Shown: positions 4,572 to 61,087, numbered from the whole stretch's first letter. The stretch: 61,793 nt of DNA, filler included, from 14 parts of 14 records of this genome joined end to end with filler, not necessarily neighbours in it, one strand, 5' to 3'. Translations and numbers: made by a program. Notes: generated by a model not told the origin, from the sequence alone.

Positions 4572-5338
4572 ATGCGCCCGGGCAAGCACATCACCTTCGA
4601 ACAGCTGCAAGAGCACTTTGACAAGCCGCTCGTCGACGCGGCGCACATCCTTGGCGTGTGCACCACCTTCTTCAAGGTCCGAGGCCCGCCGGTTGGGGTT
4701 GTCACATTTTGGGCTGCAGAAGACGTGCCGCAAGCACGGGATCAAGCGATGGCCATGGCGCAAGGTGGCCACCCGCGTGTTCGTCCCGGGCTGAGCCGGT
4801 CGGCAGATGGCGCGTCTCCGCCGGCAGGAACTCGAGCGACAACATCGCGAGCCCTACCGCCAACCAATGGACGAGGCCCAACTCAAATACCACGGCCAAG
4901 TCTGGAGCTACGGGGTTCCGTACGCGGTCCGGATGCCGGCCGGGACCGGCTTGTTTCCGGTGAACCGACCCGGCTTCTGCGGATGGCCGCCGCGCGAGCA
5001 AGACTCGGAATACTCGGAAGATAGGAACGTTCCGAGCACGCCGGAAGGCGAGGGGCAAGAGGCGGAAGAGGAGACCGGCGACGAGGGGCGGCCACCGTCC
5101 ATCTCGGCGGCGGAGTCGGTACTGACGGAGCTCCTGGTGGACATGTACGTGAAGAACTCTCCAAAGGTTCGCATACCAGCCTTAGTCTTGAGCAAGCATC
5201 TAGAGGATGTGTCTTGACGTGGATCTGATGGGTCGCGGCAGATCAAGAGCCACGCGGCGCCCGAGTTGTGAGCCCGCCTGGAGTCGACCTGCTCGGTTGC
5301 AGTCCAGTGACCGCACCTGTCCAAGAGAGCGTGCATAG
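4572..5338 (+). CDS. RWP-RK domain transcription factor (exons 4572-4676, 4720-4764, 4807-; ends at 5217, or at 5338 if 5167-5203 is an intron)
   Basis: Removing GT-AG introns 4677-4719 and 4765-4806 gives ITFEQLQEHFDKPLVDAAHILGVCTTFFKKTCRKHGIKRWPWRK, the RWP-RK consensus. Confidence 0.9.
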
Positions 5339-5704
5339 CAGGATTATAGCCAGAGAGTCACCGCTGTCAACTGAGCGATCAGCGGAGGTCGCACTAATTG
5401 AGCGCAAAAGAGAGATCTGGATCCGAATGATGTCGGTTGCCCAAACTCCTTGTAGGATAACGTAATCACGGAGCGATGATCCGATCGTGAATAGTGCTTG
5501 AACTAAGTTAATTGAAACTAATCATAAATTTGTGTATATTTCAAATGCGGGACGGTTTATTGCATGAGATCAAGAATCTCTATCGAACGCCATGCCGTGA
5601 GCCCGATAGTTCCGTCCTTACACGTCCCGTCCAGACAGCGTAGCTAGACTCCTAACCATCTGATCCGCGAGTTTCTTCCCTAGCCTCCCGCTAGAATGGC
5701 CTCT

Positions 5705-6762
5705 TCACTTCTCCTTCTTCTGCTCGGCCTTGCCCACGTTGTTCTTGTAGTCCGGTGTCATAAAAGCGGTCACGGCTGTCATGAACGCCATGAAATTGTA
5801 GCCCAGAAAGTGCACGACCAGCCTCAAACCCATCGACACGCCGCCAATGTCCGCCACAACAGCGGCTCGGCCGACGTGCCGGGTGAAGAGCCCGGGAAGG
5901 TCCTCAGGCTGCACGCCAAACTTGTAGAACTGAGCCATAGCCTCGATTTTAGCCGACGTGAACCCGGTGTTGCCGCCTCCAGAGGTGAACCGGCTGTGCA
6001 CAGGCGAAGGGTGGATCGAATGTACATGCACCCCGCGCGCCCGGGCCTCGCAGGCCAGCGACGCGGCGAACGCCGACAGCCCAGCTTTGGTGGTGGCTGG
6101 AACACATGGCTCAGGAAGGCGGGTGGCAAGGGGCACCGTAGAGGCAGGCGAACGGGTTGGGGATGTACGAAGCCGAGCTGGAAGTGAATACGATGCAGCC
6201 CGGGAGCTGCTTGCTGATCATCCGGCTGTACAGGTGGTGGGCCAGCCAGATGTTGGCCGTGAGGTTGCAGTGCAGGTTGGCCAGGTGGGTCTGAACCTTG
6301 TGACTCTCAAACATCCCAGTGACGATGTACCCGGCGTTCAGGAAACAGACCTGCGGGTCCTTGTCCGTTGTAGCCGCGCGCACCTCCTCCATCCACGCCC
6401 CGGAGGCGTCGGACAAGTCAGCGTTGATCTGCACCAGCTCCCGGTCTGACCGGCCGGCTCAGCCAGCGCCCTGGCAACGAGCGGCCACCGGGGAACTTCT
6501 GCTTCATCTCGGCAACGGCCTGATCGAACATGGGCTCGCCCCGCGAGACGAGCACGAGGTCGAGCCCCTGGCCAAGCAGAGTATGGGCCAGTGCTTTGCC
6601 AATCCCGGAAGAGGCTCCTGTCACCAGGCCCCAGCTGGCCTTGTACTTGCGCTTGAGGTCCTGGGGCCCGGCCAACATGGGCAGCAGGCTGTTGAGCACA
6701 AGGTACATCACCGGCGAGAACAGCAAGACCGCCCAGAACACCCACGAAAGCAGACAGAGCAT
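5705..6762 (-). CDS. Membrane-anchored short-chain dehydrogenase/reductase, very-long-chain 3-oxoacyl-CoA reductase-like (introns 6446-6488, 6097-6136)
   Basis: N-terminal TM segment, TGASSGIG, NAG motif, and catalytic YATTK (YxxxK) formed across the second intron. Confidence 0.85.
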
Positions 6763-6840
6763 GTTGTATTACTTCGACCGAGCTACGGTCGCCCAAATCT
6801 AACGGAACGACGCCGTCTCCCCTCCGTCCGAGGCTGAGAG

Positions 6841-7358: not shown

Positions 7359-7458
7359 NNNNNNNNNNNNNNNNNNNNNNNNNNNNNNNNNNNNNNNNNN
7401 NNTTAATTAATTAANNNNNNNNNNNNNNNNNNNNNNNNNNNNNNNNNNNNNNNNNNNN

Positions 7459-7579
7459 CCCCGCCGCACTCCTTGCACTGCCTGCGCAACCGACCGTGGG
7501 GGCAGAAACCCTTCCCGCCGCACTCCTTGCAAACGTAGCGCAACCGGCCGTGTGGGCAACGCGCTCGAACGTAGGGCAT
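7459..7579 (-). CDS. CxHG-x4-CxECGG cysteine/histidine repeat protein, 3'-partial
   Basis: MPYVRARCPHGRLRYVCKECGGKGFCPHGRLRRQCKECGG; two 54-nt repeat units before the contig break. Confidence 0.7.
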
Positions 7580-7626
7580 CTCAAGAGAAACCGCAGCTGA
7601 AAGTCGGTTGGTGCTTTCTGATCGGC

Positions 7627-8198
7627 ATGCCAGCGCTACTGCTTGCGGTGGCACTAGCCTGCGGGCCGGCCTTGGGGCAACATATCTGGGACATGGGCCC
7701 CGCCCAGCCGCCCGCCGCCCCGCGTGACCCTTGGGAGCCCCGCGCACCCGCCGCCCCGGCCGCCCCCAAACCGCGCCGGCCATCCAAGACGCTCGCTCAG
7801 GAGCGTCAAGCGCACGCCTTTCAAGATGCGGTCTCGCAGGTGCGCTCTCCCGCCGCTTGGGAGCCTCACACGGGCCGCAGGCCGAAGCCACCGGCCCGGC
7901 CCCACCCATCAACGCGCCGGCCGCCCCCGCCTTGCCCGTGGTTGCGGAGCGGCCCCGAGCTGGACTGTCTCTCGAGCAGCTCGAGGGTACCGGGGGCGGG
8001 GGCGGGATCAACACCGAATCCAAAGTGCCGCTGTGGCTGCTCAAGATGAAACTGGGCGACAAGGCGGCCGGCGCCGTGGCCGCAAAGCCAGTAAATTCGG
8101 AGCCGGCGCAGGGCGATCCGTGGGCGCCGGTGCGAGGCAAGTACGCGCGGATGCAAAACAAGTTCCTGGACAAGATGGCTCCGAAAGGCCAGGACTGA
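7627..8198 (+). CDS. Secreted Pro/Ala-rich hypothetical protein (intron 7840-7880)
   Basis: Signal peptide MPALLLAVALACGPALG. A 41-nt GT-AG intron joins ORFs 7552-8049 and 7731-8198 in frame. Confidence 0.6.
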
Positions 8199-8487
8199 CC
8201 CTAACAATCGCCCAATGAGTTCTGCCGCCTATTGATTAAACTGGTGCTCGCAACCTTTTATTTATTTTACCGGTACAAGTAAGTACATGACATTGTACTG
8301 GTACTGTAATGCCTCATCCATGGCCTCATCATGTTGACCACACAACACTCACAACACTCGCCACTTGCAACATTATTCGTCTTAGGCTGGTCTCGCTCAT
8401 ACGCTCGCTCATACGCTCCGCTCAGAGGCCGCAGCTGCACTCCAACGGCGCAATCCCCCAAGAAGAGAGAAGCCGAGTGCGACCCTC

Positions 8488-9153
8488 ATGTCGGCCGGAT
8501 CTGCCCTCCGCTCCGCAGCCTTGCTTCGACCCAGATTGGCCGCCCACCGTTGGCTGAGCACCCCCGCGCACAGGCCGGGCAGACCCGTCACGCCTATCGC
8601 CCGACTGGGCACCGATGATGCGCGCATGTCGAGCGCTGTGGTCAACGCGGGCCTGGTCTATATCTCCGGCCAGGTCCCCGACCCGGGCAGCTCCGGAGTG
8701 GAGGAGCAAACGCGGGAGGTGCTCGCCAAGGTCGATGGGCTGCTCGAGCAGGCTGGGGCGTCCAAGTCCTCGCTGCTGACCGCCAACATTTGGCTAAGAG
8801 ACATCGGCAGAGACTTTGACGGGATGAATCGCGAATGGTGCAGCTGGCTGGACCCGGACAACAAGCCGGTGCGGGCGACGGTACAAGCGGCGATGGCCCG
8901 GCCCGAGATTTTAGTAGAAATCCAGGTCACCGCTGTGCTGGAGACCGAGCTACGATTCGGAATGGGCGAGCGAGTGGAGTGCAACATGGGGGCGGGTGCC
9001 TGGGCGCCAGGCACAGTGATTGCGCTCAACTACCGCGAGGAGGGCTGGCCGTCTGGCAAGACGGCGCCGTATCAGGTCAATCTGGACGGCGACAGCGACA
9101 GGCAGATTTATGCGCCTGAAGACCACGACGGGATCATCCGGCGTGCGCCCTAG
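8488..9153 (+). CDS. RidA/YjgF-family (YoaB/Rid6-like) protein with putative mitochondrial presequence and an extra C-terminal SH3/Tudor-like domain
   Basis: RMSSAVV...VYISGQV...EQTREVLAKVD...ANIWLRDI...DFDGMN...W...PVRATVQA...LVEIQVTA; Arg-rich, acid-free N-terminus. Confidence 0.9.
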   Translation: MSAGSALRSAALLRPRLAAHRWLSTPAHRPGRPVTPIARLGTDDARMSSAVVNAGLVYISGQVPDPGSSGVEEQTREVLAKVDGLLEQAGASKSSLLTANIWLRDIGRDFDGMNREWCSWLDPDNKPVRATVQAAMARPEILVEIQVTAVLETELRFGMGERVECNMGAGAWAPGTVIALNYREEGWPSGKTAPYQVNLDGDSDRQIYAPEDHDGIIRRAP

Positions 9154-9548
9154 CGGATTGCAGAACTGGGTCGCGTCAAAAGCACGGTTGTGGCCTCCGG
9201 CGAATGGCGCGCCACGGCTAGCGTACGCACTCACTACTGACTAACTACTCGTACTCGTAGTACATGTTCAGGATGTAACGACTCTACTCAATGCGTCTCG
9301 AACTGTGCATTGAACCAATGAGGCTTTAAACACTCCACGTATAGCCATACACATGAATTTAGATTGAGCGTGCACGTACTCGGCACATCAGACGTCAATC
9401 AACGGCTCAAATCATGCGTCGCGACGAGTTTATAATATTCATACGTAGAGACTCATTTGATGATTCATCAGAGTGATTGATGATTCAAATGAACTTGATT
9501 TTAAGTACTATACACGGCAGCTTGCACAATCACCCCAGCCCGCTCCGG

Positions 9549-10593
9549 TCAGATCTGCTGCCGCAACTGCTCCGGCTTGTGCTGGTCGTTGGACCTCTCA
9601 AAGTAAACCTTTCTCCCAGGCGATGGTGACAGACTCCGGCCCCGCGGCCTCGGGAGCTCTACTGTAGGCGAATCCAGCCGGGAGAAGATCGACTTGCCCC
9701 CGCCGAGCTGCCGGCCACCCGACGCCAGAAAGCCCCTCGGGGCCGGGCCGGAGGGGTCAGGGGCACTCGGTCGTTGGCGAGCTGGCGACTGGCTCCTGCT
9801 GACTGAGGGGCTGCCTTGCCGGGAGGGCGACCGGCCACGCTTGTGCCGTTTCTTGTGCTTCTTCCGCTTGGGGGAGCAGGTGCCCACACTGAACGCGCCC
9901 TGGAGGGTTTGGATGCCCTCGAACGGCTTGTGAAGCTCAAAGCCCCTCAGGATAGCTTCTAGATCGCACATACGCCGGCCAGTCACACGGAGCACGCGCA
10001 GCCGGCTGGCGTTGAGTGCCCGTTGGAGCTCGACGAAGATCTTGTCCTCGGACACCAGCACCAGAAGACCGGACGGGTTGGCATCGGCCAGGCTTGTCGC
10101 CGTCATCACCATACGGCAGTCGGCGCTATCTGCCCCCCCGCGGTCAGCCTAGCAGGTCAGGTGGCCCACCTTTGGTCTTGCTGGTCTCAACCAGCACCAG
10201 CCTCTCCCCGAGACCCCGGGCGCACCGGGTACCCACCAGCCGCTCCCTCGGGATGCTATCAGACCGATAGAACGCCGCCACATGGCACGGCAGCGCGCAG
10301 GGCACGGTCTGGAAGAACGTAGGCCAGTTGTCCAGGTCCACCAGCACCGTCAGCGGCCCGCCGGCCGCCGCGGCTCGCCAAGCCTCCAGGCTGGCCGCTA
10401 CGGCCGCCGGCCGGGCCGGGCTGGGCTCCCGACTGTTCGACCGGCTGTGGGACGGGCTGTTGGTCAAGTCAGCGAGCGGCCGCTTGACCGGTTTGCCAGG
10501 GACAGCCGATCCGAGCCGGTCGGCCAGCCGGGGGCGGACCGGTTGGGGGACGGCCGGCCCGTCGGGTAGGATGGTGAGCGCCGGCAGATCCAT
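9549..10593 (-). CDS. ZNF451-type PIN/NYN-like domain protein (intron 10130-10169)
   Basis: VLVDLDNWPTFF...TKDSAD (formed across the intron)...VLVSEDKIFVEL, the PIN acidic pattern; basic Lys/Arg/Ser-rich tail. Confidence 0.7.
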
Positions 10594-10994
10594 CGCCCCC
10601 CACCAACAACTCTCTGCGAAGAAGTTTCGGATTCATACCAAACAGAGTCCGTTGTTTGGCGATCGGTGGCCTGGATCAGTCCATCTGAACATTCAGTCAA
10701 CTTATTCAGTCTAGATAATCGATACGAGTGCGCGCATGTGCCACCGCCCGGGGAAGCGCCTGGGTGCGGCACCGGCCCGATTCAGTGGGCTGTTGCTAGA
10801 AGCGAGCCAGAGCCGAGATCGCGAGCAATTTCATTCAAGCTCGTCAACTGTAATTATGACAACGGCAACAAACAGTGCACGCACAACAACCACGGAATAC
10901 CAGCCCGCGCACACCGGCCACCGGTCCCATCCCAGCCCCCGCCCGGCTTCCACGGATCTGCGTAGGACGGACTAGGTCGGACAGGTAGGGGCGT

Positions 10995-11468
10995 CTACGC
11001 GTGGATAATCATGTCCTGCTCGGAGAGATGGACGAACCTTACCACGTAATGCTCCTGCCCCCGGGGCTCGCCGGCCAATAACGGACATCCAACGGACCAC
11101 GTGGTAGTGCAGCTTCAACAGGTCAGCAAGCTTCTCGGTGTACACGTGATTGACTGCCTGGGCGGACGAGGTAGGAGTCAGCTCCCCGATGTGCTCCACG
11201 ATGCAGTGGGCGCAGTTGGTCGAGGCCCCGCCCACCAGGATGTCCTCGGTCTCCACAGTGTGCACCTGCCCCGGCTGGCCCCGCCCCGCCCGGCGCCGCA
11301 CCGCCACAGTCGATTCGGGCTTGCCCAGCACGTCGGCGGACATCGCCGAGAGTTCCCGGAGGAAGAGGTTCTGCCGGGGCTGGCCGGGCCGGCCGGCGGG
11401 TGAGGCGCCTTGGCGGAGGGGTGCATCATCGCGCCGTCGGAGCGGAACCAGATCTTGATCGAGGCCAT
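10995..11468 (-). CDS. MIF/tautomerase-superfamily protein, 118 aa (exons 11468-11409, 11370-11302, 11265-11098, 11054-10995)
   Basis: Spliced product MASIKIWFRSD...FLRELSAMSADVLGKPESTVAVHT...VGGASTNCAHCIVEHIGEL...LADLLKL...HYVVRFVHL matches MIF length and motif spacing (LGKP, GG..CA, IG). Needs one GC-AG intron. Confidence 0.75.
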
Positions 11469-11529
11469 TGGGCGGTGTCGATTCGGTTGTTTGATGATCA
11501 ACAACGGAAATTCTGTTCTCAGGTGCCCC

Positions 11530-12084
11530 ATGTGGCGGTGGGTTGTGCTTGGGCTCTGGCTGGCCAGCGGGGGCGAGGCCGGGTTGCTGACCCAGGATCG
11601 GTGCACCCAGCAGCTCCGCGATTTCTACATCCGGATCGCCACCGGCAGCGACTGCAAAGGCCCCGGCTGCTCTGAGCAATGCCAGGCGCTCGTCACTCAC
11701 GCGCTCAACAGCTGTGCCGGCTTCAAGGCACCGTCCATGCGAGGACTGGACTGACCGGTGGGGTCAGATCCCGAACACGCTGGTCGATTTCATACCGGAG
11801 GGTGTGGAGCAGATGCGGCACGCAGTTGATCTGGACGAGCCGTCATCGGCCGCTTGCGACTGGACCTGCAAACGGTGTGCGGAGGTGACCGGCACTCGCA
11901 GGGCCGAGACCGGCAAGGAGGCGCACTGGTCGACTGGCGACCCGGAGGACGCATGGGCCAAGGCGGCCGGGCTGCCGCCCCCAGCCAAGCGGCCGGCAGC
12001 GGAGGAGGAGGCGGCTAGGGCCAAGGCTAGGGCTGCGGACGAGGCTGAAGCGGTCAGAGTGAAGGCTGCTGAGGAGGAGGCAGC
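11530..12084 (+). CDS. Secreted Cys-rich protein with Ala/Glu-rich tail, 3'-partial (GC-AG intron 11728-11767)
   Basis: Signal peptide MWRWVVLGLWLASGGEAG. AAG|GC...CTGAC...CAG joins two ORFs in frame. AAEEEA repeats at the contig end. Confidence 0.6.
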
Positions 12085-12474: not shown

Positions 12475-15400
12475 ATGCCGATGTCACACAAGGACGGGGC
12501 GCTTCACGACCGAGATGGTCAGTTCTTGGGCCTCTCGATCGGCGACAGCCGGGCCAAACGTGCCGCCAAAGCGGCCGATGGAAGTCCCAGCCGGCGCCGT
12601 GGGTCTAGCCCGAGCCGGCCGAGAGGAGGGGAGGAGTCGGAAGTGGTGGAGCTGACGAAGAAGGACTGGCAGGACATCTTTGACCGGTACCGCAAGGAGA
12701 TAGACTTTGTGCAGGTGCTGCTGCCCGCTGCCCGCCCACTCAGTCGGCGCAGATGGGCCTGGCCAAAGGCCGGCACGAGGACGCCATACAGGACCTGAAC
12801 GAACTGCTGACGGTGATGGTGCACGACATGCAGAACACCCCGTCCACCTGCGAGATGCCGGCCCGAACGGTGGTGATTGCTTTCTTCAAGCTCCACCCTG
12901 ACATGATGCATCTGCATCGCGAGATCAGCGTGGAAGGTGATGCCAGACTCGGCTGGCCGGCCCGAGTGCCGGGCGGCAGGTTACGACGCGGGGACTGATT
13001 ACTGGTGGGCCCACCGCTGCTGTGGGTGGGGCGAGCTCGAGCCGGCAGGTGGGAAGCGTGCGACTCGGGCAAGTCGCTGTGCATTTTCAGTGCGGATAAT
13101 TCTTTCCGAAAGCTCTGCGGGAGGATTGCCACCAATGAGTAAGCGCTAGTATTGGGGCTCGTCATGACGTTTGAGTGCAGCTCGTTTGACTATTTCATTC
13201 TGTTTCTGATTGTTATTGGGACGATTTGTCTGGCGATCGACAGCCCCGTCACCTGTACCTCCAAGTGGTGCAGTTACTTGGACGTAATCGACCTGATCAT
13301 CAACATCATCTTCACTCTAGAAATGTGCATCAGGGTGGTTTATATGGGCCTCTACATGAGCAAAACAGCATACTTACAAGACACCTGGTTTATTTTAGAC
13401 TTTTTTGTTGTAACTACCAGCTGGCTCGCGCTGCTCGACGGTAAGCCCCCCCCCCCCTCCAGCGCCCAACGGACTGCGCTTGCAGGATTTCCGAGCTTCA
13501 AGCCTTTCCGAGCTTTCAGGGCTCTGAAGACTGTAAAGGCTGTCCGTCTGCTCTCATATTGCGCTGCCGTGCTCGATGCGCTGGTCGCTGCGCTTCCGTT
13601 GTTTTTTGACGTTATGATTGTGACGTTGTTCCTTCTTGCAATCTTCGGTGCCAGCTGCTCTGCCCCGGGGACTGAGCTCCGGGTAGGAATCATGGGCCTC
13701 CAGTTCTTTAATAAGAGTATCCACAGGAGGTACTACATCTCAATCAGCCGGCGGCGATCTTATCCTGAATGATGCGATGCAGGTGCCAGGTGCTGGATTC
13801 GGACCCAGCGGGCACCGACGGGATCTTGCAAGTCGGTGGTGGCCAAGAGATGTATTGTGGCCAGGATCTATACGGCGGCCGGTACACTCAGGGCAGCAAC
13901 GAGGCGTGCTGCACCGCGGTGATGAACGGCACTCAAACGTTCTGCGCGGCGTGCAAGATGTTCTCTGCCACCGGGCTGACCTGTCCGAGGGGGTCCTTCT
14001 GCAACGTAATCAACGACAAGGGAAGGCTCCCGGACGATGGTTGGATGACCTTCGACAATATCGGGCTGGCTATGCTCACTCTGTTTCAAATTATGACCCT
14101 TGAGGTCGGGCTCGGGCCGGCTGTGCATCTAACTGTGGGTGGGCACAGGGCTGGACAGGGCTGATGTATTCAGTCCAGATGGCTACTGGGAGCCCGTCAT
14201 CGTGGTATTTTATCACTGTTGTGCTGCTGTTCGCGTTCATTATCATTAATCTATGTGAGCCAAGCACATACCTGCGGTGTGAGAGGGCGGGCAGATATCG
14301 CTGTCGTTGTGCAGACGTTTGCCCTGATCAGAGCCGAAAGAGATGCCGAGGAAAGCGAAGAAGCGTTGTACAGGGACGAAAAGGAAGCCCAGGAGCGGGA
14401 AGCAATCCGCCTTGAGCAGGAGAATCGCATGCTCAGCATCAAGCAAGCAAATCCTCTCGCGAAATTCGAACCAGACAAGCCAGACTTCGGATCCCAAGAC
14501 CTGCCCGCAGATGAGCAGGTCACGTCGCCTATAATTAAAAATGGCCAGTGTGCTAGGCACTCTTTGAGAACGGACTTGTCATTTGCTGAACTTTGAATGG
14601 TGATGGGTGCAGATTTCAATCTTTCTGAGATCCCTTGAGCTGGATCAATACTATGAAACAGTGATGCACATGGTCGACACCATTGACGAGCTGTATTTGA
14701 TCACGGAGGACGAATTAGCTGCCGCAGGATGGAAGCTGGTCCACATCCGACGGTTCCGAGACGGTAAGCCTCCGCATGATCTGATAGCTGAGTAAGGGCT
14801 TGCAGCTGTCCTCGCCCCTCCCGCCTACCGCTCCAATGCTTCCTACCACGGGGTCCAAGACTGGAACCCGCTGAGTCCGAATGCAAAGACGCCCGGCGAA
14901 GAGATGTACGCATTCCTGCGGCACGCCAACCTTGAGCAATACCACAACACGTGCGTTGATCGCGATTTGGCCTAGAGCTTGATTGTTTGGTGCTTGTAGG
15001 CTCATTCAGTTGGCGGATACACTTGATGAGCTTCAAAGGCTTTCGATCGAGGACTTTGAGTTTGCGGGGCTGAAGCTTGTTCACGCCCGTGCGCTGCAAG
15101 AAGCACTCATCGACCGTGCCACTGCCAGGCCTCAAGAGAACGAAGAGTACCTCAACGCGCAACTCGTCGGAATGCTTGGTGGCGAAAGTGTCGGGATGTG
15201 GAGGTCGAAGATGATGCGAGGCTCCCCGTTTTGGCAGTCGTCATTTGGTCAGTTCTTGATGTCAATTTGGTGGAACGCAGACCCCATGGTAGATTGGGAA
15301 AACCCTCCTCCTCCTGCCCTTCGAGAGAAGTTCATTGAGCCGTGGCAATGGAGCGGCTGTGTGGGCTCAATCGTTGCATCCGACGTATTTGAGGGAATCA

Positions 15401-17401
15401 TTGCCTTTTCTATCGTCACAAATCTGATTTTTATGGCAATGGATTACGACAACGCCCCAACAGGCTACCGGAAAATGTTGAAAGCCATCAGTTTCGTCCA
15501 TTTCGATATCTTCTTCGCTGAGATGCTGCTAAAGATGAAAGGAATGGGAGGGTTGAAGTGGTGCTGCATTCGCTTGATCAACCGCACTGACCCGGACTGT
15601 TCAGGTATTTTTCATACCCTTTCAATTGCCTTGACTTCTTCTTGGTCGTGACTGCTATCCCGGATGCAATTGCCTTCGTCATGGGGAGGAAACCTTTCAT
15701 GAATCTTTCGATGCTCAGAGTCTTGCGCCTCTTGAGGATGTTCAAGCTGATCAGAAGCATGCGTCAGCTCCTGGAAGTTGTAGCATCTGCAAGCAAAGCA
15801 ATCACAAAGTGAGCCCCTCCCAGGCCTTTGAAGAATCTCACAACCATGCGGTGCAGCCTAATCATTTTCATTGCCTTCTTTGTCTTTGTTTTTGCTATTT
15901 TTGGGATGCAAATGTTCGCTGGCCATGTCAAGGACGCAGATGGAAATCTACCAAGAGTGAATTTCGACGACACAGGAAATGCAATGATTGCTTTATTCCA
16001 AACAATGACAGGGGAGGACTGGACCGTTATCTTGTGGAATGTCATGAGAGAAAATCCAGTGGGGGGCGCAATTTTCTTCATTGTCTTCTATGTCCTCGCT
16101 AATTTCATCTTGATGGAGATGTTTTATGCCGTGATCCTTGAGAACTTCATGCTTTCTAGAGAAGAAAAGGACGCACTGCAAAAGGAATTGTACAATGTTC
16201 TGCAGCGAAAAAAGCAGGCACAGAAAGCACTAGCTGACTCTGTGGACAAGGAGCTGGCTGCAAAACTAAAGGCTGAGCTCGAAGAGCAAGAGCGTAAAGA
16301 GGTGCGGGCACGCTTCATGAATGCAACTGACCCATGCGTGTGTGCACAGTCGAGGGAACGGCAAAGAAAAATCAGAGAAATGAACGAAACCGAGAGGCTT
16401 GCACATACAGATACCGAAGTCAGTGAAGAGCAAAAAGAAAAACTTCGCAAAAGTCGCGAAGATATGCTCAAAGCAAAGATTACTAAGGAGCTTTCAGAAA
16501 AGCAAGAAAACTTGGACGGGCTTGTGCCAGATCGGGGTTTGGAGTATGCGGAGAAAGAGGAGGGGAATAGCGACCGAATGGTTATCGATCAGCTTGATGA
16601 CGGCCCAAAGGAAAAGGTGAAGAAAAGCAAGTTGCCACCTTCGGCCATTGTGGAGAAGACCTGCGGCTGCCTTACACAGGATAATGCCCTCCGAGAATGG
16701 ATGTACAAATTCGAAAACACGTGGATTTTCACGTGGACGGTGTTCTTTGCTATACTGTTGGGCTGCGTCCTCTTGGCTCTTGACACTCCTTACAAGCCCG
16801 AGCCGTGGGTGAAACCCCTGATAGAGATCTGCAGTCCAATTATTTTGGCCATATATAATTTGGAGCTCGCTGTGAAAGTCATCTCCAAAGGATTCTCTGG
16901 TAAGCCTTCGGCATATATCAATGACCCCTGGAACCGTGTTGACTTCTTTGTACTTACGCTTTCGGACCTTGCAGCTTTCATGGCTATTGTTGGCCTTGAC
17001 GACATAATGCCATCGACATTCATTCTTTCGATCAGAACTTTGCGAGTCATTCGGCCTCTGCGACTAATCAACCAGAACGAGAGGATCCAAATTGTGTTCA
17101 ACGCTTTATTCATGTCCTTGCCGGCCATTGTCAATGTCCTGACCTTGTTTTTCTTTGTGGTGTTGATGTTTGCTACCCTTGGGCTCAGTTTATATATGGG
17201 GCTCTTCTACCACTGCAACATGGAGGTTGAAAACAAAGACCAGTGCTTGGGCACCACAAGCACAACTCTCGATGGGGATCTCGGATACGTTGTCCCGACC
17301 CACTGGAAGAACCCTCGCTATAACTTCGATAATGTCTTTCAAGGTATACTAGTCCTTTTCGAGGCTGCCACGTTAGAGGGATGGGTGGATGTGATGCAAT
17401 C
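12475..17401 (+). CDS. Four-domain-type voltage-gated Ca2+ channel alpha subunit (domains I-III seen), about 14 introns, tandem SAM domains in the I-II linker; 3'-partial
   Basis: S4 helices FKPFRAFRALKTVK, LRVLRLLRMFKLIR and IRTLRVIRPLRLI; pore loops TLEGW, TGEDW and TLEGW (E-E-E); pre-S1 KSLCIFSADNSFRK. Confidence 0.92.
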
Positions 17402-17776
17402 NNNNNNNNNNNNNNNNNNNNNNNNNNNNNNNNNNNNNNNNNNNNTTAATTAATTAANNNNNNNNNNNNNNNNNNNNNNNNNNNNNNNNNNNNNNNNNNN
17501 NCTCCTTTTTCATAAACGTTGTAATACCCTGCACGGCACTCACCAACAATTGGCCGCTACCACAAAGACATGGCGTTCATTTGCAGTGCACCGGACCATG
17601 ACGCCGTGGCAGGATGGCACACTCGGCTGTTCGCCTCTCTTACATGCATGTATTGCGATTCGCGATCGGATAATTCGGATTCGGTTGCTCGAATGCTCGT
17701 TCCGATCCTGACAATTAAGGCAGCGGTGGGATTGTTCAATGTTGACGATTGAGGGTTTCCTGCTGTTCAGCAAAAA

Positions 17777-27616: not shown

Positions 27617-28885
27617 TTAATCGAGTAGCTCACCCGTCCTGTCTTCAACCACCTTCATCGTCGTAAGCGTCTTCTCACGCCAATCGCAGATGTTGTCTTT
27701 GACTAAAGCAATCTGATCCAGGTCGAGCGCGTGCGGTAGAGCCCAAGTGATGGCGATCGTTTGGTTCACCTCGTCGATACGGCCCTTGATCAGCTCAAGA
27801 GACATGGCCTTCATCAGCAGCAACTCGACCTCCTCCAGTGCAATCACCGCCCCCGCCGCGATGTCACTGAACGGGATCAGCCTGCCAGGTCCGGCTCAGC
27901 CAGCGCGTGCGCAGGCACGCACCTCTCATCTGATTTCCTGCGGAAGATCAGCTCGAGCAGCGCGGCGATCGCCACCTTCTGCTTCAACAGCTGCGCCCCC
28001 ACAATCAGCACCGGCAGCTCACCCCACGCTCGGCACCTGCCTATTGCTGCCCACGATCGGGTGGGCCCCGATCGCTGCGGCGTGTGAGGTCCAGAGCTGC
28101 TCATACTCGCTGATCCTCCCGTAGTTGAGCGCGGCGATCATCAGGAGCATCCACTCGTGTTCGGAGCCCTTGAGCGCCTCCAGGATCGGGTGCATCAGGA
28201 TCTCGCCGAACGTGAATATCGAGTCCGTCACGAGCGCCGCAAGGCACAAGTCGCGCGCCAGCTCAGTTTTCTGCTGCGGCTCGATGGTTTCAATTGGCGT
28301 GTAGGTGAGGTACCGGAGCGCGGCCTTGTAGAACTCGCCGGAGGCAGCCTTGCGCTTAAAGTACTGGGCCTTGGTGTTGTAGAACGCCGAGGAGATGACG
28401 TTGTCCGTCTCGAGCAGCACGTCGAGCAGCGCCTGGCACTCATCGATGATAGCCTTGCAGGTGTCGACCTCGCCCAGCTCCAGCCGGTGCCAGGCGATGC
28501 GCATTTTGACATAGATCCCGGCCTCGGTGTCGCTCACCTTCTCCATCCGCCGGTTGGTGATGCGGTCGAGTACAGCCTGCAGGAAGGTGAGCGCGGTGCT
28601 GTGGTCGGTGTGCTGCTTGGACACGGCCACCGCCATCATGACCACCTGGAGCGGGTTGCATTTGGTCTCGATCGCCTTGATCACGCACTCGTAGAACATG
28701 ATCAGCGTGTCTCCGCTCAGCATGCCGCTCTTGATCGAGTCTACGATCAGCACGGTCAGCTGGTGCCACAGCTTGCGATGGAACAGGTCCTCCATTTGCT
28801 CCACCGCGGCCGCGTCCATCCCCGGGTTGGATTTGATCCCCGCCAGGTACTGCCCGGCGGCGGCCTCCAGCTCCTTGTCACTCAT
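27617..28885 (-). CDS. PSMD13: 26S proteasome lid subunit Rpn9/PSMD13 (two introns near 27991-28036 and 27882-27922)
   Basis: LFHRKLWHQLT, FYKAALRYL, IFTFGEILMHPIL, EVELLLMKAMSLELIKGRIDEV...ITW PCI domain. Confidence 0.95.
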
Positions 28886-29105
28886 GCTGGCGCGCTGGTG
28901 GTAGGTCCCTGGTACACCCGAGGCCCTGGCTTTGTCGAAGCCGGAGCTTTGAGGAAGCCAACGGAACTGAACGCCAGTCCTCCGAGATCACCTCACTGAT
29001 GGCTANNNNNNNNNNNNNNNNNNNNNNNNNNNNNNNNNNNNNNNNNNNNTTAATTAATTAANNNNNNNNNNNNNNNNNNNNNNNNNNNNNNNNNNNNNNN
29101 NNNNN

Positions 29106-35457: not shown

Positions 35458-35550
35458 CGGGTCACCGAGCACCCTCGCAGCACGCCCATCTATCACACCG
35501 TCTTTCACACGGACGTTTATTTTATTTATTTTTATTTTTAATTGGTGTTT

Positions 35551-49104: not shown

Positions 49105-49290
49105 GCTCGCGCAATCACGTCGCGAACACAATTATTGTGGTCGATTGACCTCTCGTGATCATGCTCCTATAGCTTGATCTTTAGTGCATGTACGATGAAT
49201 ACGAGTACATGATTTGACAATGTATTGTCCATGAAGCAGTTGTGCATTAGTTGTGCATTTAACATTTGTACAATCATGTACTACTTACCC

Positions 49291-49360
49291 GTACGAGTAC
49301 CGTACGAGTACTTAACGAGTACTCGTACTCTATCTATGTCTACTCGTACGTACTCGTACT
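49291..49360. repeat. Cluster of TACGAGTA/TACTCGTA motifs between convergent stop codons
   Basis: GTACGAGTACCGTACGAGTACTTAACGAGTACTCGTACTC...TACTCGTACGTACTCGTAC; the same motif occurs at other 3' ends. Confidence 0.75.
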
Positions 49361-53220: not shown

Positions 53221-54171
53221 TTATGGCGCCGCTGTTATCATCAGCAGCTCATTGGTGACAACATGCGGAAAAGGTCTCCAGTCAGGCGGTGGCGGTGCAA
53301 CAACAATAGGCGGGAAGGTGACCCCAAACGGTACGGGCAGCGCTATCTCATGGCACCTGACTTTTGCAGGCATCGAAAGATTCTGGCAATGCTCGTTCAA
53401 AGCACCCTGGAGCATTCGTGTATCCTCAGGATCCCCACAAGGCATACTCAAGGTAAACCTCCACGGAACCAGATTCAAATATGCATACCGCAGCGCCTGC
53501 AGCGCTCCACTAGCTATCAGATCTCTCAACGATGCTGGTTCTGGGCCTCGCGTAGGCGCCTCGATACACAAGGAGCGCAGTGTGGCAGCGGTGCGCCGAA
53601 TCAACGCAATCGCACAGTGACGCAAGTGCACCCAATCTTGGGGAACGTTCATCAGTGTGGCTCCGCGTGAATAATGTACGATGTGGAGTACCCGCAGAGC
53701 CGTAAACTGCTGCCCCAGCTCGGCAAGCGCTCCTGAGAGGTTCCGTGTGCACTCCGCACCCCCACCCCCTTGGTACGCGCCCAGAAACAGATGAGTAATT
53801 TCACCTCCGTGCCGCTGGGACACCAGCTCGAGGCGTCTGTACGCCGAGTGGTCACTCCCGTGGATGACATCAAGCTGGATTTGGATCCCAGCCTGTAGGG
53901 CCGGGTGCTCGGTCCAACGGTGTGCGCGGAGTGAGCCGGCTCCGATGGCGAGGACGCGTACCGGCGGCTGGCTCCGGCGATAGCTCGAGCAGGTGGCTCC
54001 CCACATGAGGCCTCGGGGGCCATTCGCTAACAGCGCCACCTGGCTAATGGCCGAATTGGGCAGGTCGGACCATGCTGCAAGTGGCCGAATTGGGCAGGTC
54101 GCTGCACTGTGGTTCGCGACTACGGAGCATTTGGCCTGCAGCAAGCGCATGGTGAGGGGTGCCCATCCCAT
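53221..54171 (-). CDS. F-box-like protein
   Basis: WSDLPNSAISQVALL...GATCSSYRR F-box pattern, followed by degenerate LRR-like segments (TALRVLHI, TLRSLCI). Confidence 0.55.
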   Translation of the reverse strand: MGWAPLTMRLLQAKCSVVANHSAATCPIRPLAAWSDLPNSAISQVALLANGPRGLMWGATCSSYRRSQPPVRVLAIGAGSLRAHRWTEHPALQAGIQIQLDVIHGSDHSAYRRLELVSQRHGGEITHLFLGAYQGGGGAECTRNLSGALAELGQQFTALRVLHIVHYSRGATLMNVPQDWVHLRHCAIALIRRTAATLRSLCIEAPTRGPEPASLRDLIASGALQALRYAYLNLVPWRFTLSMPCGDPEDTRMLQGALNEHCQNLSMPAKVRCHEIALPVPFGVTFPPIVVAPPPPDWRPFPHVVTNELLMITAAP

Positions 54172-54355
54172 CACAGGCGGAGCTGGGCGTCAGGCGGCGC
54201 ACCATGATGAGCTTGGCCGGCACCTTGCCTGTCGGCTGGTAAGAGGACTCGTGAGGACCGGTCAGACCCAGGTGGCAGCCGCCAACTCAATCGATCATCA
54301 ACGGCATCCATCAATTTCAGGCTCGAGGGTTGGGCTTTGGTCGACATTCTTCACG

Positions 54356-56308
54356 ATGCGCAGCCCGGCGGCCTCCGGCCGGACGACCCCTCCTACCGAG
54401 CCAAGGGAGGAGAGCGATGTGGAGCTGGCGCCCTTCCTGGGGCCCGACACGCCGCCCAGGGGCTCGCCCACCTCCTCCCCCCGTTGCTCCCCGCGCACGA
54501 TGTTCCGGCGGGCTTCGGCCAAGATCAACCAAATGCCCCGGTTCAGGCGCAACATGCTGGGGGGCGTACTAGCCGCCGTCGGTCTCGGATTGCTCGGGTA
54601 CATGCTGTACAAGCTGCTCCCTACCCGGATGCGTCACGGCTGCCCCGCCGGCAACCGATGCCCTGATCCTACTTTTGTCCGGCCTTCTCGCGACGAGACA
54701 CAGGCTCGCTGCGGGCTCATGCCGTGGGGGTCGCCCGAGAAGCTGAAGGTAAGCAGCTTCTCGTCGCAGGCGGCGTCGGTGATGGGAACGGCGGCCGAGG
54801 CCGCGGGGCTGCTCAAGCCCGGTCTCAGGGCGACCGAGGCCGAGGCGCGGGCTCTGGTGGAGGGGTATGCTAAGCTGCACCGTCGGATGATGGACCCTCA
54901 CGACAAGAAGCCCAAGCGGTTCTACGTGGCGAACTCGATCATGGCCAACTCAGGCAACCGGGCGATGGGCCTGGTTTCTCACCTGGTGCTGGCCATCATG
55001 TCTGGCCGCGCGCTGGTATATGACGGCTGGCTGCCCGGATTCGATTTCCCCATAGATCTGGACTATCAGCACGTGCCCGGCTCGTACGGCTGCGTGCTCA
55101 GAAGCGAGTGGGAGGGGAGCGGGAACACGGAGTGGCTTGCATACGACCCGAAGGAGACGTTCTGTGATGCGTACCAGCTGGACAGCCTGATGGGCAACGA
55201 TCCTCTTTTCTACTGGACCACGTTCACGCCGGACTGGTGGGCCAAAAACCCGACCCCAGGGCTGAACGGCCTGCCGGGGGCGCTGGACATTCTAGGCACT
55301 TCGACCAATGTGCACCACCGTGCTTGGATCCAGCGTCACATCGGGGATCACGTGCGGGTGCTCACAAACTGGTTCCTCAAGCCGGACCCGCATCTGATGC
55401 AGGAGGTGCTCGCGATAGAGTCAAAGCTGTGCGGCGGGCAGTGCGAGCTCGGAGTGCACATCAGGCGCGGCAAGGACAACGACCTCTACTTCCCTCTTAA
55501 AGACGAGCGAGCAGAGATCAAACAGTTTGCCACCTGCGCCGAGAGGGTGGCGCGGGCGAAGAACCTTGGCCACGACTGGAAGGCGTATGTGGCTTCGGAC
55601 ACGGCATCGGTAGTGAACACGGCTCGAGAGTTCCTTGGAGGATCTCGCACCAGGGTAGCAGATGTGACCCGTGCTTGTGACGTGACAAGTAAGTGTGACG
55701 ACATGAAAATGAGGGCGAACATGAACGCTCTGAACGAGAGCTTGAAGGAGGTGTTTTTGATGACGCGGACAAAGTACTTTATCGGCACGCGCTTCTCGAC
55801 CTTCAGCATGCTGGTGGCCTCGATGCGAGAAGACAAGCATTTCATGGTCTACCCAGGCGTGTATGATGAATGCCTGCAGGCTTCTAGCCCGTTCAACTCA
55901 CTCAGCAGGTTCGAGCAAACAAACCTGGTCACCTCCAGCGGCGACGCCTCGTTCTCGATTTACGGCAGAATGGGCCAAGTGTACTGCATTGATCAAGAGA
56001 TGATAAACGATGCTCAGGCGCTCGGAGGGACTTTCAACCCGCACACGGAGACGCTCCAGGGAGTGCTCCATTGGGACAAGCCGACCCAGCACCCAAAGGC
56101 CTGCGCCAGAGACTACACCGAGGACTGCCCCGAGCTGTGGAACCTGGACGTGGCCTCGGGGCTCTGCCACAGCCCCAAAACGTACTTGGGCAACTGCGGC
56201 AAGACGCTATATCCAAAGATTTCAGTAGAGGAGAAGCAAAAGTGGGCCTTCCTGTGCAGCGCCGATTGGCCGTGCAAGTACGACCTGGACCGGTTCATCA
56301 GTCGTTGA
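54356..56308 (+). CDS. Type II membrane alpha-fucosyltransferase-like enzyme (GT23/GT37-like) with a C-terminal CPW-WPC domain
   Basis: TM anchor; SGNR...LAIMSGRAL; GVHIRRG; YVASD; EVFLM..TKYFIGTRFSTFS; C-terminal RDYTEDCPELW...C..P..Y.G.C...EKQKW...C...WPC. Confidence 0.85.
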   Translation: MRSPAASGRTTPPTEPREESDVELAPFLGPDTPPRGSPTSSPRCSPRTMFRRASAKINQMPRFRRNMLGGVLAAVGLGLLGYMLYKLLPTRMRHGCPAGNRCPDPTFVRPSRDETQARCGLMPWGSPEKLKVSSFSSQAASVMGTAAEAAGLLKPGLRATEAEARALVEGYAKLHRRMMDPHDKKPKRFYVANSIMANSGNRAMGLVSHLVLAIMSGRALVYDGWLPGFDFPIDLDYQHVPGSYGCVLRSEWEGSGNTEWLAYDPKETFCDAYQLDSLMGNDPLFYWTTFTPDWWAKNPTPGLNGLPGALDILGTSTNVHHRAWIQRHIGDHVRVLTNWFLKPDPHLMQEVLAIESKLCGGQCELGVHIRRGKDNDLYFPLKDERAEIKQFATCAERVARAKNLGHDWKAYVASDTASVVNTAREFLGGSRTRVADVTRACDVTSKCDDMKMRANMNALNESLKEVFLMTRTKYFIGTRFSTFSMLVASMREDKHFMVYPGVYDECLQASSPFNSLSRFEQTNLVTSSGDASFSIYGRMGQVYCIDQEMINDAQALGGTFNPHTETLQGVLHWDKPTQHPKACARDYTEDCPELWNLDVASGLCHSPKTYLGNCGKTLYPKISVEEKQKWAFLCSADWPCKYDLDRFISR

Positions 56309-58020: not shown

Positions 58021-58387
58021 NNNNNNNNNNNNNNNNNNNNNNNNNNNNNNNNNNNNNNNNNNNNTTAATTAATTAANNNNNNNNNNNNNNNNNNNNNNNN
58101 NNNNNNNNNNNNNNNNNNNNGTCGCCGTTTGGAAAATCGTTGTGCGATACGAGTATTTGAGTACATGTATTTTATAATATTAAGAGAGCCATTCACTACC
58201 TCGAGTTAACCTCGAGTACCTCCGGTGGCATCACGGGATAATCACGAGGACTCGCGTTCCTTCTCTAAGCAAATTCCAGATCAATGATTGTACAAATGCC
58301 AATTGCAAGGCATATGATACGATACGATACGCTTGTTAAAACACCGAAGAGCATTCTGGCTATCTTCGGCCCTGCAGTTGCACCACA

Positions 58388-61087
58388 TCAAGACTTACGT
58401 GCCAAGATACACACCTTAGTGTGGCAAATGCAGTCCGGTTTGTGCCCAAAGCGCCCACATGGTTTAATCGGTTTGATCGGCGCTGCGTCCTGCCGGCCAG
58501 CTCAATCCACAAGCCAAGTGCAAGGACGCGCCTGCCCTGACCCGTCGGGTGCTACTGGCCTGCAGATGGGGACGGCACTGGCTGATCGGTCAGCTGGCTT
58601 CGACCCTGCGCTCCTGCCTCGTCCAGCCGGCCCCGCTGCCATAAGCCGTCAACCCGCGCCACAGTCAGCACACACCTCGCCCCCTGCCTCTGCCTCGCCC
58701 CCTGGTGGGCGCTGGCTGAAGAGCGGCACGGCGTCCAGCGGCTGTCACTGGCTGGGCAGGCGCCTGGATCGCCCTGTTAGGATAAAGGCCCGAGTGTTCC
58801 TAACAAGCTAAAGAGGATCCAGGCCAGTTGTTTGAGCAACAACCAAATTCGTGAATAAACTAGGGCAAAACATGCCTGCTCTGGGACAGTAAGCATGGTG
58901 CGTAGCTCGTGCTCGCCGTATTCCTCCTCGTCGCCGTCGAAGAACTCAACTTTAAACATCTCAGCCTTCGGGACCCACGCCGTGACGGTCCCCCTGCACA
59001 AGCCATAGCCCTGGAAGAACTTTTCGACCACAACGCCGATATAATCCTCAGGCTGGTTGTCTCTGGCAGATAGCAGCTGCTCCTGCTCGGTGTCAGCCGC
59101 GCCTTCTGCCGCCTGAGCAGCCCTGCTCCGCCCTCGGCTCTCGACGCACCACTTGCAGATTGACAGCCCACCAGCCCTTTGGACCACTGTGGCCGTCCCC
59201 CACCTAGTGTAACAGTTAACACGCCTTCCTAATCAGGCAACTCACCTCCCGCAAGAGTCGCACATCCGCTGCTGCGCCGTGTCATCCCCCTCGATCCCAG
59301 GCAGAGCGTCCCCTCGCTGTTGGCCGGGTGCGCTGATCTGCAGCCGGTTTTGTACTGAGCTGTACGCCCGTGCGATCTCCACTCCTCCTTGCTGTCTCCT
59401 CGCAGCCCCGCCGCCGGTGCCGCCCGTCGGGCGCAGCACGTCTTGCAGCGATCGCAGCAGTGGCACCCGGTGCTTCTGACGCTTGGTGCACCAGTAGGCG
59501 TAGCAGCGCACAATCTGCTCGCTCAGTACGTGCCCATAGCAACGGCTCTCAATCTCACTAACCAGGCTCGGCCTCAGGTCCTCCTCAGTTGGTACTTCCC
59601 CCTCTGTCGCTGTAAAAATCGAGCCAGTCGCGCACCTGAAGCCACACAGCCGCTCAGCGGCCGGAAGAGCGAGTCCCTACCTGTGGTGCTGTGCGTAGTC
59701 GTATTCAAAGTGGGTGATCAATAACTCAAACAGGTCGGACGCTCTGTCGAGCCCGGGCGCCAGCTGCATTTCGACCGGCAGCTTGCGGAGCCAGCGCTCG
59801 TCGTGCTCGTCTAGATCGTACATTTCGTGTATCGGCCTGGCCTTAGCGTACTGTCCCGGACGAGTCCACTTATCCCGTTCGAGCACTTCCGGTACGATCT
59901 GCGCCCCGCTTACGCACACACATTGCACACAGACGCACATTGCACACAGGCGTGCCCACATCCTGGGCCGGCAACCGCGACTCGCACGGTACGTATACTG
60001 CAGCCACGCCTGCTCGCCGGATCAGCCCACATTGATGAATGCAAAGCGGCACCAGACATCTGTTGGTCGTGTCTGAAATCGTCATGGCTGGAAGCTCGCC
60101 GCGGGGTGAGCGTGTCCCGTTCACCTGCCAACGGTAAACCCCGGGCGGGCGCGGCCTGCCACCCCTGCCAGACCGGGCCGGGCCAGCCAGCGGTGAACGG
60201 CTTCGCTTCCTGAGCGAGCTTTCGGACTGTGTCCTCCGCACCTTTTCAGGGGCCTGACACCGCCAGTTTAGCCGCGGGCGCACGGACCGGCCACCTTTTT
60301 GGGCTGGACCTTCTTGGCTGCCCTCCGCTCGGGGTGCTTCTCACGAGGGGAGTCGGGCGGCTCAGTCTTTTGTTTCTTGGAAGCCCTCTCTTTGGCTGGG
60401 GCAGACACAGTGCCACTCATGGTGGGGCCACAGCGGGCGGCGCACCTGCGGTGGGGCTGCCGGGCTCCTTCTTGTACTTAGATTTAGGCGCGATGAGCGT
60501 GCTCCCCCCCTCGCCGCTGCCCCCCTGTTCAGCGGGCGTGGCAGCACACCAAGGCACCGGGAACCGTCCGACGGCTTGCCTGGTCCGCCCTGCAGCGAGG
60601 ACCCGCCCAGTGTATAGGGCATCGGTACGTTTGCCGCAGTCTCGACAGGCCGCGGCACATAAGGCTCTTGGAGCAGACCCCATCCTGGCGGTTCGGGGGC
60701 TTTGGCAGTCAGCCGAGTCCTTGCGGGCGAGTGCAGCCCCAGCGCCATGGGGGAGACCAGCGGCCAGGGTAGTAGCGCCGAGATCACCACCGTTTGGGCC
60801 GGGGGGGGCGGCTTTGGCGGTCTGAGCTGCGTCACCCGGCCGGCGGGAGCCGGCAATGACTTGGGCGCGGGCGCGGGGGTCTTTACCTCCGGGGCTCGAG
60901 GGACCACCGGAGCCGTATACGCCCCCCGGGGAGGTGGGGGGAGCGTTGGGGCCCGCGGCCGCTGGACATCGCTGCTCAGACTAGAGTCGATCGTGAGCCC
61001 GGTCTGGGAGTGGCCTGGGCTCACTCCCCTCTGGCCGGAGGGCTGGACCGCGGGCTGGTTGACCGTCATCATGCCGCTGGTCTCCAA
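58388..61087 (-). CDS. Enhancer-of-polycomb (EPL1/EPC)-like chromatin protein with a Tudor-like domain; both ends uncertain
   Basis: YDLDEHDERWL...FELLITHFE; YAYWCTKRQKHRVPLLRSL; YIGVVVEKFFQGYGLCRGTV...FKVEFFDGDEEE; long Pro-rich N-terminal region. Confidence 0.7.

Follow-up and report, generated by a model that had tools for sequence, protein, structure and literature searches.

The described introns that come nearest to those considered here are the canonical introns of the Mamiellophyceae (statements on published introns, here and below, refer to particular passages of the cited papers). The Micromonas introns combine the donor AG/GTGCGT with the branch sequence NCTGAC located 43-52 bp upstream of the acceptor (PMC3879977), and those of Ostreococcus lucimarinus are characterized by GTGCGTG, GACTGACG and a preference for CGCAG, with a branch distance of about 20-35 bp (PMC2483917). 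Here, we examine a class of short introns in a stretch of 61,793 bases (hereinafter, the window), which consists of 14 contigs of 3.0-6.9 kb each, joined by N44-TTAATTAATTAA-N44 spacers, and is not one continuous locus; the spacers lie at 4219-4318 and in 12 further places (for example, 29006-29105), and features cannot span them. The G+C content of the contigs is 51-64%.

Several other intron types are relevant for comparison. The introns of Trichomonas, Giardia and Yarrowia lack a pyrimidine tract and have an anchored branch-to-AG distance (PMC2483917). The BOC1 introns of the Mamiellophyceae are shorter than 75 nt, occur many per gene, are AT-rich (<43% GC) and, as described in PMC3879977, contain no discernible branch motif. 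Human ultra-short introns of 37-65 nt, in which G is the commonest base and G triplets are frequent, score poorly with the usual splice-site models (PMC4463651), and a subset of human short introns relies on SPF45, instead of U2AF, to deal with its short pyrimidine tracts (10.1101/784868).

The explanation that we favor, and hold to be probable, is that the introns of the window are ordinary U2-type spliceosomal introns with a minimal intron-definition design, in the genome of a GC-rich marine eukaryote. The strongest signal in these introns is a branch-like motif near position -15, which was absent from an earlier note on this DNA.

Twenty validated introns

The validated set consists of 20 introns from five contigs, supported by RNA contigs (3 introns), homolog-guided spliced alignment (12) or continuity of Pfam profiles (5); this validation is independent of any length prior. 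Removal from RNA was observed for the three introns skipped by RNA contigs and is indicated for two more, in the PSD13 gene, at both of which transcript-derived homologs lack the intron-coded residues. The validated introns are as follows:

4677-4719, plus strand: intron splitting the RWP-RK domain, 43 nt; the profile is covered from 1 to 30 until 4676 and continues with 31 from 4720 (+1 frame)
6097-6136, minus strand: short-chain dehydrogenase intron, 40 nt, ending in CCTGAGCCATGTGTTCCAG; adh_short profile at about 149 before, resuming at 150 after
6446-6488, minus strand: short-chain dehydrogenase intron, 43 nt, ending in GGCTGAGCCGGCCGGTCAG; adh_short_C2 profile to 44 before, resuming at about 45-47 after
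11055-11097, minus strand: MIF gene intron, 43 nt, GT-AG, GTCCGT...CCCCGGGGGCAG; skipped by RNA contigs in runs X1, X6 and X7
11266-11301, minus strand: MIF gene intron, 36 nt, in frame, GT-AG, GTGCGG...CCGGGGCAG; skipped in runs X1 and X7
11371-11408, minus strand: MIF gene intron, 38 nt, GC-AG, GCGCCT...CCCCGGCAG; skipped in runs X1 and X7
13139-13180, plus strand: intron of a four-domain ion channel gene, 42 nt; spliced alignment to homologs P0075, P0110 and P0143
13648-13686, plus strand: ion channel intron, 39 nt, ending in GGACTGAGCTCCGGGTAG; P0075, P0110 and P0143
13730-13782, plus strand: ion channel intron, 53 nt; P0110 and both gene models, weaker support
14105-14148, plus strand: ion channel intron, 44 nt, ending in CTAACTGTGGGTGGGCACAG; P0071, P0075, P0110 and P0143
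14255-14294, plus strand: ion channel intron, 40 nt, ending in GAGAGGGCGGGCAG; P0071, P0075, P0110 and P0143
14764-14805, plus strand: ion channel intron, 42 nt, GTAAGC...CTGAGTAAGGGCTTGCAG; P0071, with the acceptor also in P0110, and both gene models
14951-14999, plus strand: ion channel intron, 49 nt; P0071 (sole homolog) and gene model
15561-15604, plus strand: ion channel intron, 44 nt, ending in CACTGACCCGGACTGTTCAG, the donor possibly 3 nt upstream; P0070, P0071 and P0110
15809-15856, plus strand: ion channel intron, 48 nt, GTGAGC...CTCAC...GCGGTGCAG; P0070, P0110 and P0143
16302-16349, plus strand: ion channel intron in a charged low-complexity stretch, 48 nt, in frame; P0070 and P0071, the least certain of the 20
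27882-27922, minus strand: intron of the proteasome Rpn9/PSD13 gene, 41 nt, GTGCGT...GGCTGAGCC...CTGGCAG; 5 of 5 homologs
27991-28036, minus strand: PSD13 intron, 46 nt, GTGCCG...CTGAT...GTGGGGGCGCAG; 5 of 5 homologs
48091-48134, plus strand: xanthine dehydrogenase intron before a mini-exon, 44 nt; MoCoBD_2 continuity and restored VSHGGTEMGQG
48196-48240, plus strand: xanthine dehydrogenase intron after the mini-exon, 45 nt; MoCoBD_2 profile positions 83 and 84 meet over the joint

The RNA contigs were aligned to the contig 7459-12084 only. Metatranscriptome contigs that are 90-99% alike to this contig skip exactly the three minus-strand stretches of the MIF gene listed above; elsewhere on this contig, 10130-10169 included, there is no usable RNA cover, so that the RNA is uninformative there either way. 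The stretch 11371-11408, which the earlier note did not list, was assigned as a GC-AG intron because this is the only placement that gives an AG acceptor. The 36-nt intron 11266-11301 is stop-free and lies in frame within a 263-codon open frame, and annotation from open reading frames would lengthen the MIF protein by 12 spurious residues. A poly(A) tail closes one of the metatranscriptome contigs at about 10815 (minus strand), some 180 nt past the MIF stop codon, and no TGTAA signal was seen just upstream of this site.

For the homolog-guided calls, we used a custom protein-to-genome spliced aligner that allowed GT-AG and GC-AG introns of 20-500 nt. The homologs that support both PSD13 introns are the closest proteins found, transcript-like and 66-74% identical; stop-containing insertions at both sites are also apparent in a plain tblastn search. 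A scan of metagenomes by PSD13 alignment produced one transcript-like related contig with an uninterrupted frame of 400 aa and no genomic relative. The homologs of the ion channel, from a full HMMER search, are more divergent (48%, 38% and about 30% identity); ten introns of 39-53 nt were accepted in this gene, each with up to four of the five aligned homologs. Calls with GC donors and one homolog each (14552-14612 and 13904-13957) or with one distant homolog each (13857-13896/13903 and 13441-13485) were dropped, as were gaps of 84-475 nt proposed by P0075, P0110 and P0143 alone, which were taken to be alignment skips. Across five more introns, in the RWP-RK (one), short-chain dehydrogenase (two) and xanthine dehydrogenase (two) genes, Pfam matches in neighboring frames abut. 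The two xanthine dehydrogenase introns, of 44 and 45 nt, enclose a mini-exon of 61 nt (48135-48195, plus strand) that carries HGGTEMGQG and was lost by the gene model.

Two gene models were run in addition. With a flat length prior, a Viterbi model based on codon scores predicted 88 introns, 37 of these no longer than 70 nt, and many of its long introns are implausible; the second model, which predicted 74 introns, carries a length prior, so that its lengths are not evidence. From the latter, 49 introns in accepted gene regions outside the validated spans were kept; removal of one of 112 nt and of three that were later validated left 45 model-only introns which, together with the 20 validated ones, make up the 65 candidates. 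The length-prior model recovered 9 of the 20 validated introns exactly and missed the junctions of the other 11. Being blind to the intron interior, it would, when it errs in junctions, mainly dilute internal signals rather than create them; the choice of boundaries by codon score could nevertheless push G-rich, codon-poor stretches into model introns. Homolog searches with the gene at 17746-18498 and, among longer proteins, with the gamma-tubulin-complex gene found nothing, and the introns in contigs 5 and 11 accordingly come from the gene model only.

Splice sites, branch-like motif and the G-rich tail

The validated introns are 36-53 nt long, with a median of 43 nt and a G+C content of about 0.64; 19 have GT-AG termini and one has GC-AG. 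The donors read GTGCG (4), GTGCC (4), GTCCG (2), GTGAG (2), GTAAG (2) or otherwise (6), giving the position consensus G-T-G-C-G. By class, GTGC accounts for nine donors, GTCC for two, GTGG for one, GTRAG for four, and the GC-AG intron for one; none matches all of RAGT at positions +3 to +6. The last exon base is G in 16 of the 20 introns, the intron positions +4 to +12 are C-rich (0.39), and the acceptor is GCAG, with G at -4 in 15 introns and C at -3 in 18. No U12-type introns, the donor of which is (A/G)TATCCTT, were detected: none of the 65 candidates begins with GTATC or ATATC.

An expectation-maximization search recovered the motif s-C-T-G-A-G-y in 24 of 63 introns, compared to 3.9 ± 1.9 in shuffled sequences. 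The pattern CT[GCA]A[GCT], with its A at -11 to -19, is present in 11 of the 20 validated introns (1.1 ± 1.1 in 500 shuffles, with a maximum of 7) and in 29 of all 65 candidates (3.6 ± 1.8 in shuffles; 6.3% of exon decoys). The position of the motif A ranges from -12 to -17, with the mode at exactly -15 (12 matches), and in the validated introns that bear the motif, this A lies 26-32 nt from the 5' end. In 10 of these 11 introns, the first AG downstream of the motif is the terminal AG.

The tail of the validated introns (positions -12 to -4) consists of 0.09 A, 0.23 C, 0.47 G and 0.21 T, compared to 0.16 A, 0.31 C, 0.30 G and 0.23 T in the interior. The G excess is significant (Fisher p = 5.4e-5; bootstrap difference 0.11-0.23), holds in 18 of the 20 introns and remains when position -4 is excluded (0.43); in each of the five contig groups, tail G is at least as high as interior G. 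The excess is weaker in the model-only set (0.40 vs 0.33, p = 0.004). Exon GT..AG decoys have 0.29-0.31 G at the same positions, and tail G is tied only weakly to the local G+C content (0.40 vs 0.44). Runs of G are less common than this composition might suggest: GGG is found in 8 of the 20 validated introns, GGGG within the last 13 nt in 3 of the 20 and in 9 of all 65 candidates (2-3% of decoys), and no position besides -4 is consistently G. An apparent period-2 pattern of G in the tails of the validated introns did not recur among the model introns and was discarded. A pyrimidine tract is absent, C+T amounting to 0.44 in the tail vs 0.54 in the interior, and a run of at least five pyrimidines in the last 20 nt occurs in one of the 20 introns.

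These observations largely bear out the earlier note, which had described introns of mostly 36-55 nt with donors that are often GTGC, GTGG or GTCC rather than GTRAG, and with G-runs where a polypyrimidine tract is expected: the short lengths, the donor words and the missing tract all recur in the validated set, and the G content at -4 to -12 exceeds that of the intron as a whole, the difference being of moderate size. The statement that many introns have a G-run overstates the frequency of such runs. To call the donors weak is misleading because GTGCGT is the printed consensus of canonical Mamiellophyceae donors (PMC3879977, PMC2483917, in the parts used here), and a genome-wide scope had been claimed for what are 14 fragments of one bin. 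Among the six introns singled out there, 11055-11097 and 11266-11301 are matched to the base by RNA; the remaining four are probable or plausible only:

10130-10169, minus strand: intron with a G7 run, 40 nt, GTGGGC...GGCTGACCGCGGGGGGGCAG; gene model, joins coding-signal frames, probable
41795-41834, plus strand: intron, 40 nt, GTGCTGCCC...GCTGAGTGGCGGGGGGCAG; both gene models, joins two coding-signal frames, probable
31975-32017, minus strand: intron near the start of an ankyrin-repeat gene, 43 nt; manual frame reading and ankyrin-cap motif, plausible
19064-19118, plus strand: intron, 55 nt, GTGCCTCTGCCC...GGCTGAGCCCCGGGCAG; good signals and frames, plausible, the gene model differing

A weak NYN Pfam match starts 2-3 residues from the acceptor of 10130-10169, and the gene model prefers 31988-32030 over 31975-32017, a shift of 13 nt. 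Two near-identical donor-like copies, GTACCTC.GATCTGGC.GC, are located at 19201-19219 and 19275-19293 (plus strand), 74 nt apart, and could represent either alternative donors or a small duplicated segment.

Explanations for the intron design

Under the explanation that we favor, the donor GTGCG or GTGCC, typical of the lineage, would follow a G at exon position -1; a branch motif, CTGAG, CTGAC, CTCAC, CTGAT or CTAAC, would be placed 26-32 nt from the 5' end; and the acceptor would be the first AG about 15 nt past the branch A, in the GCAG context. The motif thus probably marks a branch site whose distances to the two intron ends hardly vary, and the 3' site would be picked by its distance from the motif A. 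The spacer of about 10 nt between the branch motif and the AG, with about 0.45 G, about 0.23 C and little A, is too short for a classical pyrimidine tract and differs from one in composition; because it is poor in A, a premature AG would be avoided. Avoidance of AG is known to shape the tract before the acceptor (PMC10946897, in the passage considered). We infer that the excess of G would reflect a base composition that is tolerated or under weak selection, and not a site bound by an altered factor.

Several points weigh against this explanation. The sample is skewed, half of the validated introns (10 of 20) coming from the single ion-channel gene, and the 45 model-only introns are error-prone, so that the figures for the 65 candidates are diluted. 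Nine of the 20 validated introns have degenerate words in place of the strict motif, among them the three RNA-proven MIF introns, which carry just CCAGC or CGAGC-like words; no lariat or branch-point read was seen, and the branch A is a prediction from the motif. The ratio of G to C is about 2:1 in the tail compared to 1:1 in the interior, which goes beyond avoidance of A and leaves room for a real G-reading factor. Finally, the nearest proteins are 66-74% identical, and any assignment of the host lineage is tentative.

Such a factor is the core of an alternative that is in line with the earlier note and that we consider unlikely. In this alternative, the G-rich tail takes over the role of the pyrimidine tract and is recognized by an altered large subunit of U2AF or by a different protein, for example one that binds G-runs or one like SPF45, as used for human short introns; 3' recognition in this lineage would then differ in kind. 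The excess of G in 18 of 20 introns, beyond what avoidance of A would give and accompanied by a depletion of pyrimidines, fits this scheme, and the human G-rich ultra-short introns (PMC4463651) and SPF45-dependent short introns (10.1101/784868), as presented in those sources, show that routes of this kind exist. Against it, GGGG is confined to 3 of the 20 introns, G is consistent at -4 alone, introns with the tails TTGCTGCTGGCAG, GACTCTACGGCAG and CATGTGTTCCAG are spliced too, and the well-placed branch motif already accounts for the choice of the site. We assign a similarly small probability to a lineage-wide default 3' code without a pyrimidine tract, in which a U2AF of changed specificity, or a factor independent of U2AF, would recognize the G/U-rich 10-nt spacer together with the G at -4, with the U1 5' end matched to GTGCG; if true, this would be a whole-genome version of the rare human G-rich ultra-short introns. 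The common words of the introns, such as GCTGGCTGAGCCGG, could also stem from copying of a mobile introner-like element, a very unlikely origin given that the longest common words are otherwise shuffle-like (12 pairs of at least 10 bases vs a mean of 6.6 and a maximum of 15) and coincide with the branch motif and the GC-rich bases beside it, with no wider intron family seen; in addition, the introner classes printed in PMC3879977 are longer, the shortest averaging 67 nt. The observation in favor of such copying is that the unlinked introns 27882-27922 and 6446-6488 (both on the minus strand) are identical over 16 bases around the branch motif, a length reached in none of 30 dinucleotide shuffles.

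The earlier note had suggested that such introns might be defined by fixed length, by branch-point distance or by end-to-end pairing, the last on account of a 5' CTGCCC that is complementary to a terminal GGGCAG; this would unite the splice sites as in the non-conventional introns of euglenids. The complementary hexamers are indeed present in 41795-41834 and 19064-19118, and C-rich 5' parts face G-rich tails in general, but such matches are no more frequent than expected by chance: in 1 of 63 introns, compared to 0.7 expected, the first 20 nt contain a hexamer exactly complementary to the terminal one. The CTGCCC/GGGCAG match follows from CTGC being the complement of the acceptor word GCAG, with donors that read GTGCTGC. 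Duplexes between the first and last 15 nt of the same intron are no more stable than cross-paired ones (-8.6 vs -8.2 kcal/mol, permutation p = 0.14; for the 15 introns validated at that stage, -9.3 vs -9.5, p = 0.61), the mean z-score of whole-intron folds, -0.23, is not significant, and the intron borders are canonical. End-to-end pairing is absent from these data and, as the principle of intron definition, is extremely unlikely. Still less credence is due to the view that the introns are artefacts, that is, assembly indels, frameshifts or junctions misinferred by hand. Such errors might be expected in a fragmented bin of 3-7 kb contigs in which the gene model misplaced 11 of 20 validated junctions; however, the GT..AG or GC..AG stretches are skipped to the base by RNA contigs that come from separate studies, the transcript-derived homologs are free of intron-coded residues, and the termini are canonical in 20 of 20. 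The artefact reading is refuted for the 20 validated introns and is possible for individual model-only ones. The earlier proposal is partly supported: its observations were largely right, and its interpretation was right on geometry, given the narrow range of motif positions relative to both intron ends, and wrong on pairing, while the modified 3' splice-site recognition system that it implied is hypothetical.

Source, implications and relation to known introns

The eukaryotic origin of the window is indicated by Pfam matches to RWP-RK, a four-domain ion channel, proteasome Rpn9/PSD13, ERG4/ERG24 and ELO, and further by gamma-tubulin complex, xanthine dehydrogenase, MIF and CPW_WPC. The public runs that have words in common with one of the contigs are all marine or seawater metagenomes or metatranscriptomes, with a small word share of at most 0.14, and no habitat or strain is claimed from them. 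The source is an uncultured, GC-rich marine eukaryote, probably, as a tentative assignment, of the green-algal lineage; the Protein Atlas returned no lineage. The RWP-RK and PTM/DIR17-type Tudor domains hint at the green lineage; the CPW_WPC domain, named after Plasmodium, is found in the same bin, so that the lineage signals are mixed. The stretches concerned are 4527-5021 (plus strand), 58780-59232 (minus strand) and 53984-56305 (plus strand). Rfam and tRNA scans of the whole window detected no RNA genes and no small nuclear RNA, and the Pfam matches within the 14 contigs include no splicing-factor gene.

Two further features of the window were observed. In the alpha-galactosidase gene at 34647-35550 (minus strand), the Melibiase_2 profile (2-167) is followed by Melibiase_C (38-71), with no room for about 117 missing residues, and this gene may be truncated, a pseudogene or a misassembly. 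An intergenic run of palindromic GTACGAGTAC-like repeats occupies 49281-49359.

Gene callers trained on GTRAGT donors and pyrimidine tracts would mis-annotate the host organism, as exemplified by the junctions missed by the codon-based model (11 of 20), the 36-nt MIF intron read as protein and the loss of the 61-nt mini-exon. The placement of the motif at -15 is a rule usable as an annotation signal for such marine genomes. Furthermore, the intron-rich genes of the window are a natural example of splicing without a pyrimidine tract, which bears on the choice of the 3' site by branch-site distance alone; if the preference for G is functional, it would bear on the evolution of U2AF specificity as well. 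Our literature searches, which were non-exhaustive and excluded supplements, found no marine protist described as having introns of about 43 nt that combine a motif at -15 with a G-rich spacer.

Taken together, the features of these introns suggest a class of short U2-type introns of the intron-definition kind: their words resemble those of the Mamiellophyceae, the distance from branch to AG is much shorter, and the spacer is rich in G rather than in pyrimidines. The likeness to the canonical introns of Micromonas and Ostreococcus lies in the words, printed as AG/GTGCGT(G), (GA)CTGAC(G) and CGCAG and here GTGCG/GTGCC, CTGAG/CTGAC and GCAG, and in the setting, a GC-rich marine picoeukaryote; for the donor the likeness is partial, with GTGCG in 4 and GTGC in 9 of the 20 introns. 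Unlike in those introns, as printed, the branch motif here is about 15 nt from the acceptor rather than 43-52 (Micromonas) or about 20-35 nt (O. lucimarinus), and position -5 is G or T, not C; membership of the host in the Mamiellophyceae is not implied. The Mamiellophyceae genomes are described as intron-poor, with longer canonical introns, in contrast to the 36-53 nt introns of the window, up to ten of which occur in 3.2 kb. With the BOC1 introns, as described, those of the window share their short length and high number per gene, and differ from them in being about 64% GC and in the enrichment of the motif.

Short introns of fission yeast and other fungi, of about 40-60 nt, have a CTRAY branch near the AG, and their pyrimidine tract is weak or missing; their spacers are not G-rich, and their donors are GTAAGT/GTATGT-like rather than GTGCG. 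Human ultra-short introns, as characterized in the source used, are a rare class, often with no recognizable branch site, whereas the introns of the window are the default type, mostly with a well-placed branch-like motif. The absence of a 3' pyrimidine tract and a branch motif fixed relative to the AG are shared with Trichomonas, Giardia, Yarrowia and other yeasts. According to the published descriptions, these genomes are intron-poor, with a near-invariant ACTAAC and a distance of 2-8 nt; the genes in the window, by contrast, are intron-rich, and their introns combine a looser motif (the strict form in 11 of 20) with a distance of 12-17 nt and a G-rich spacer.

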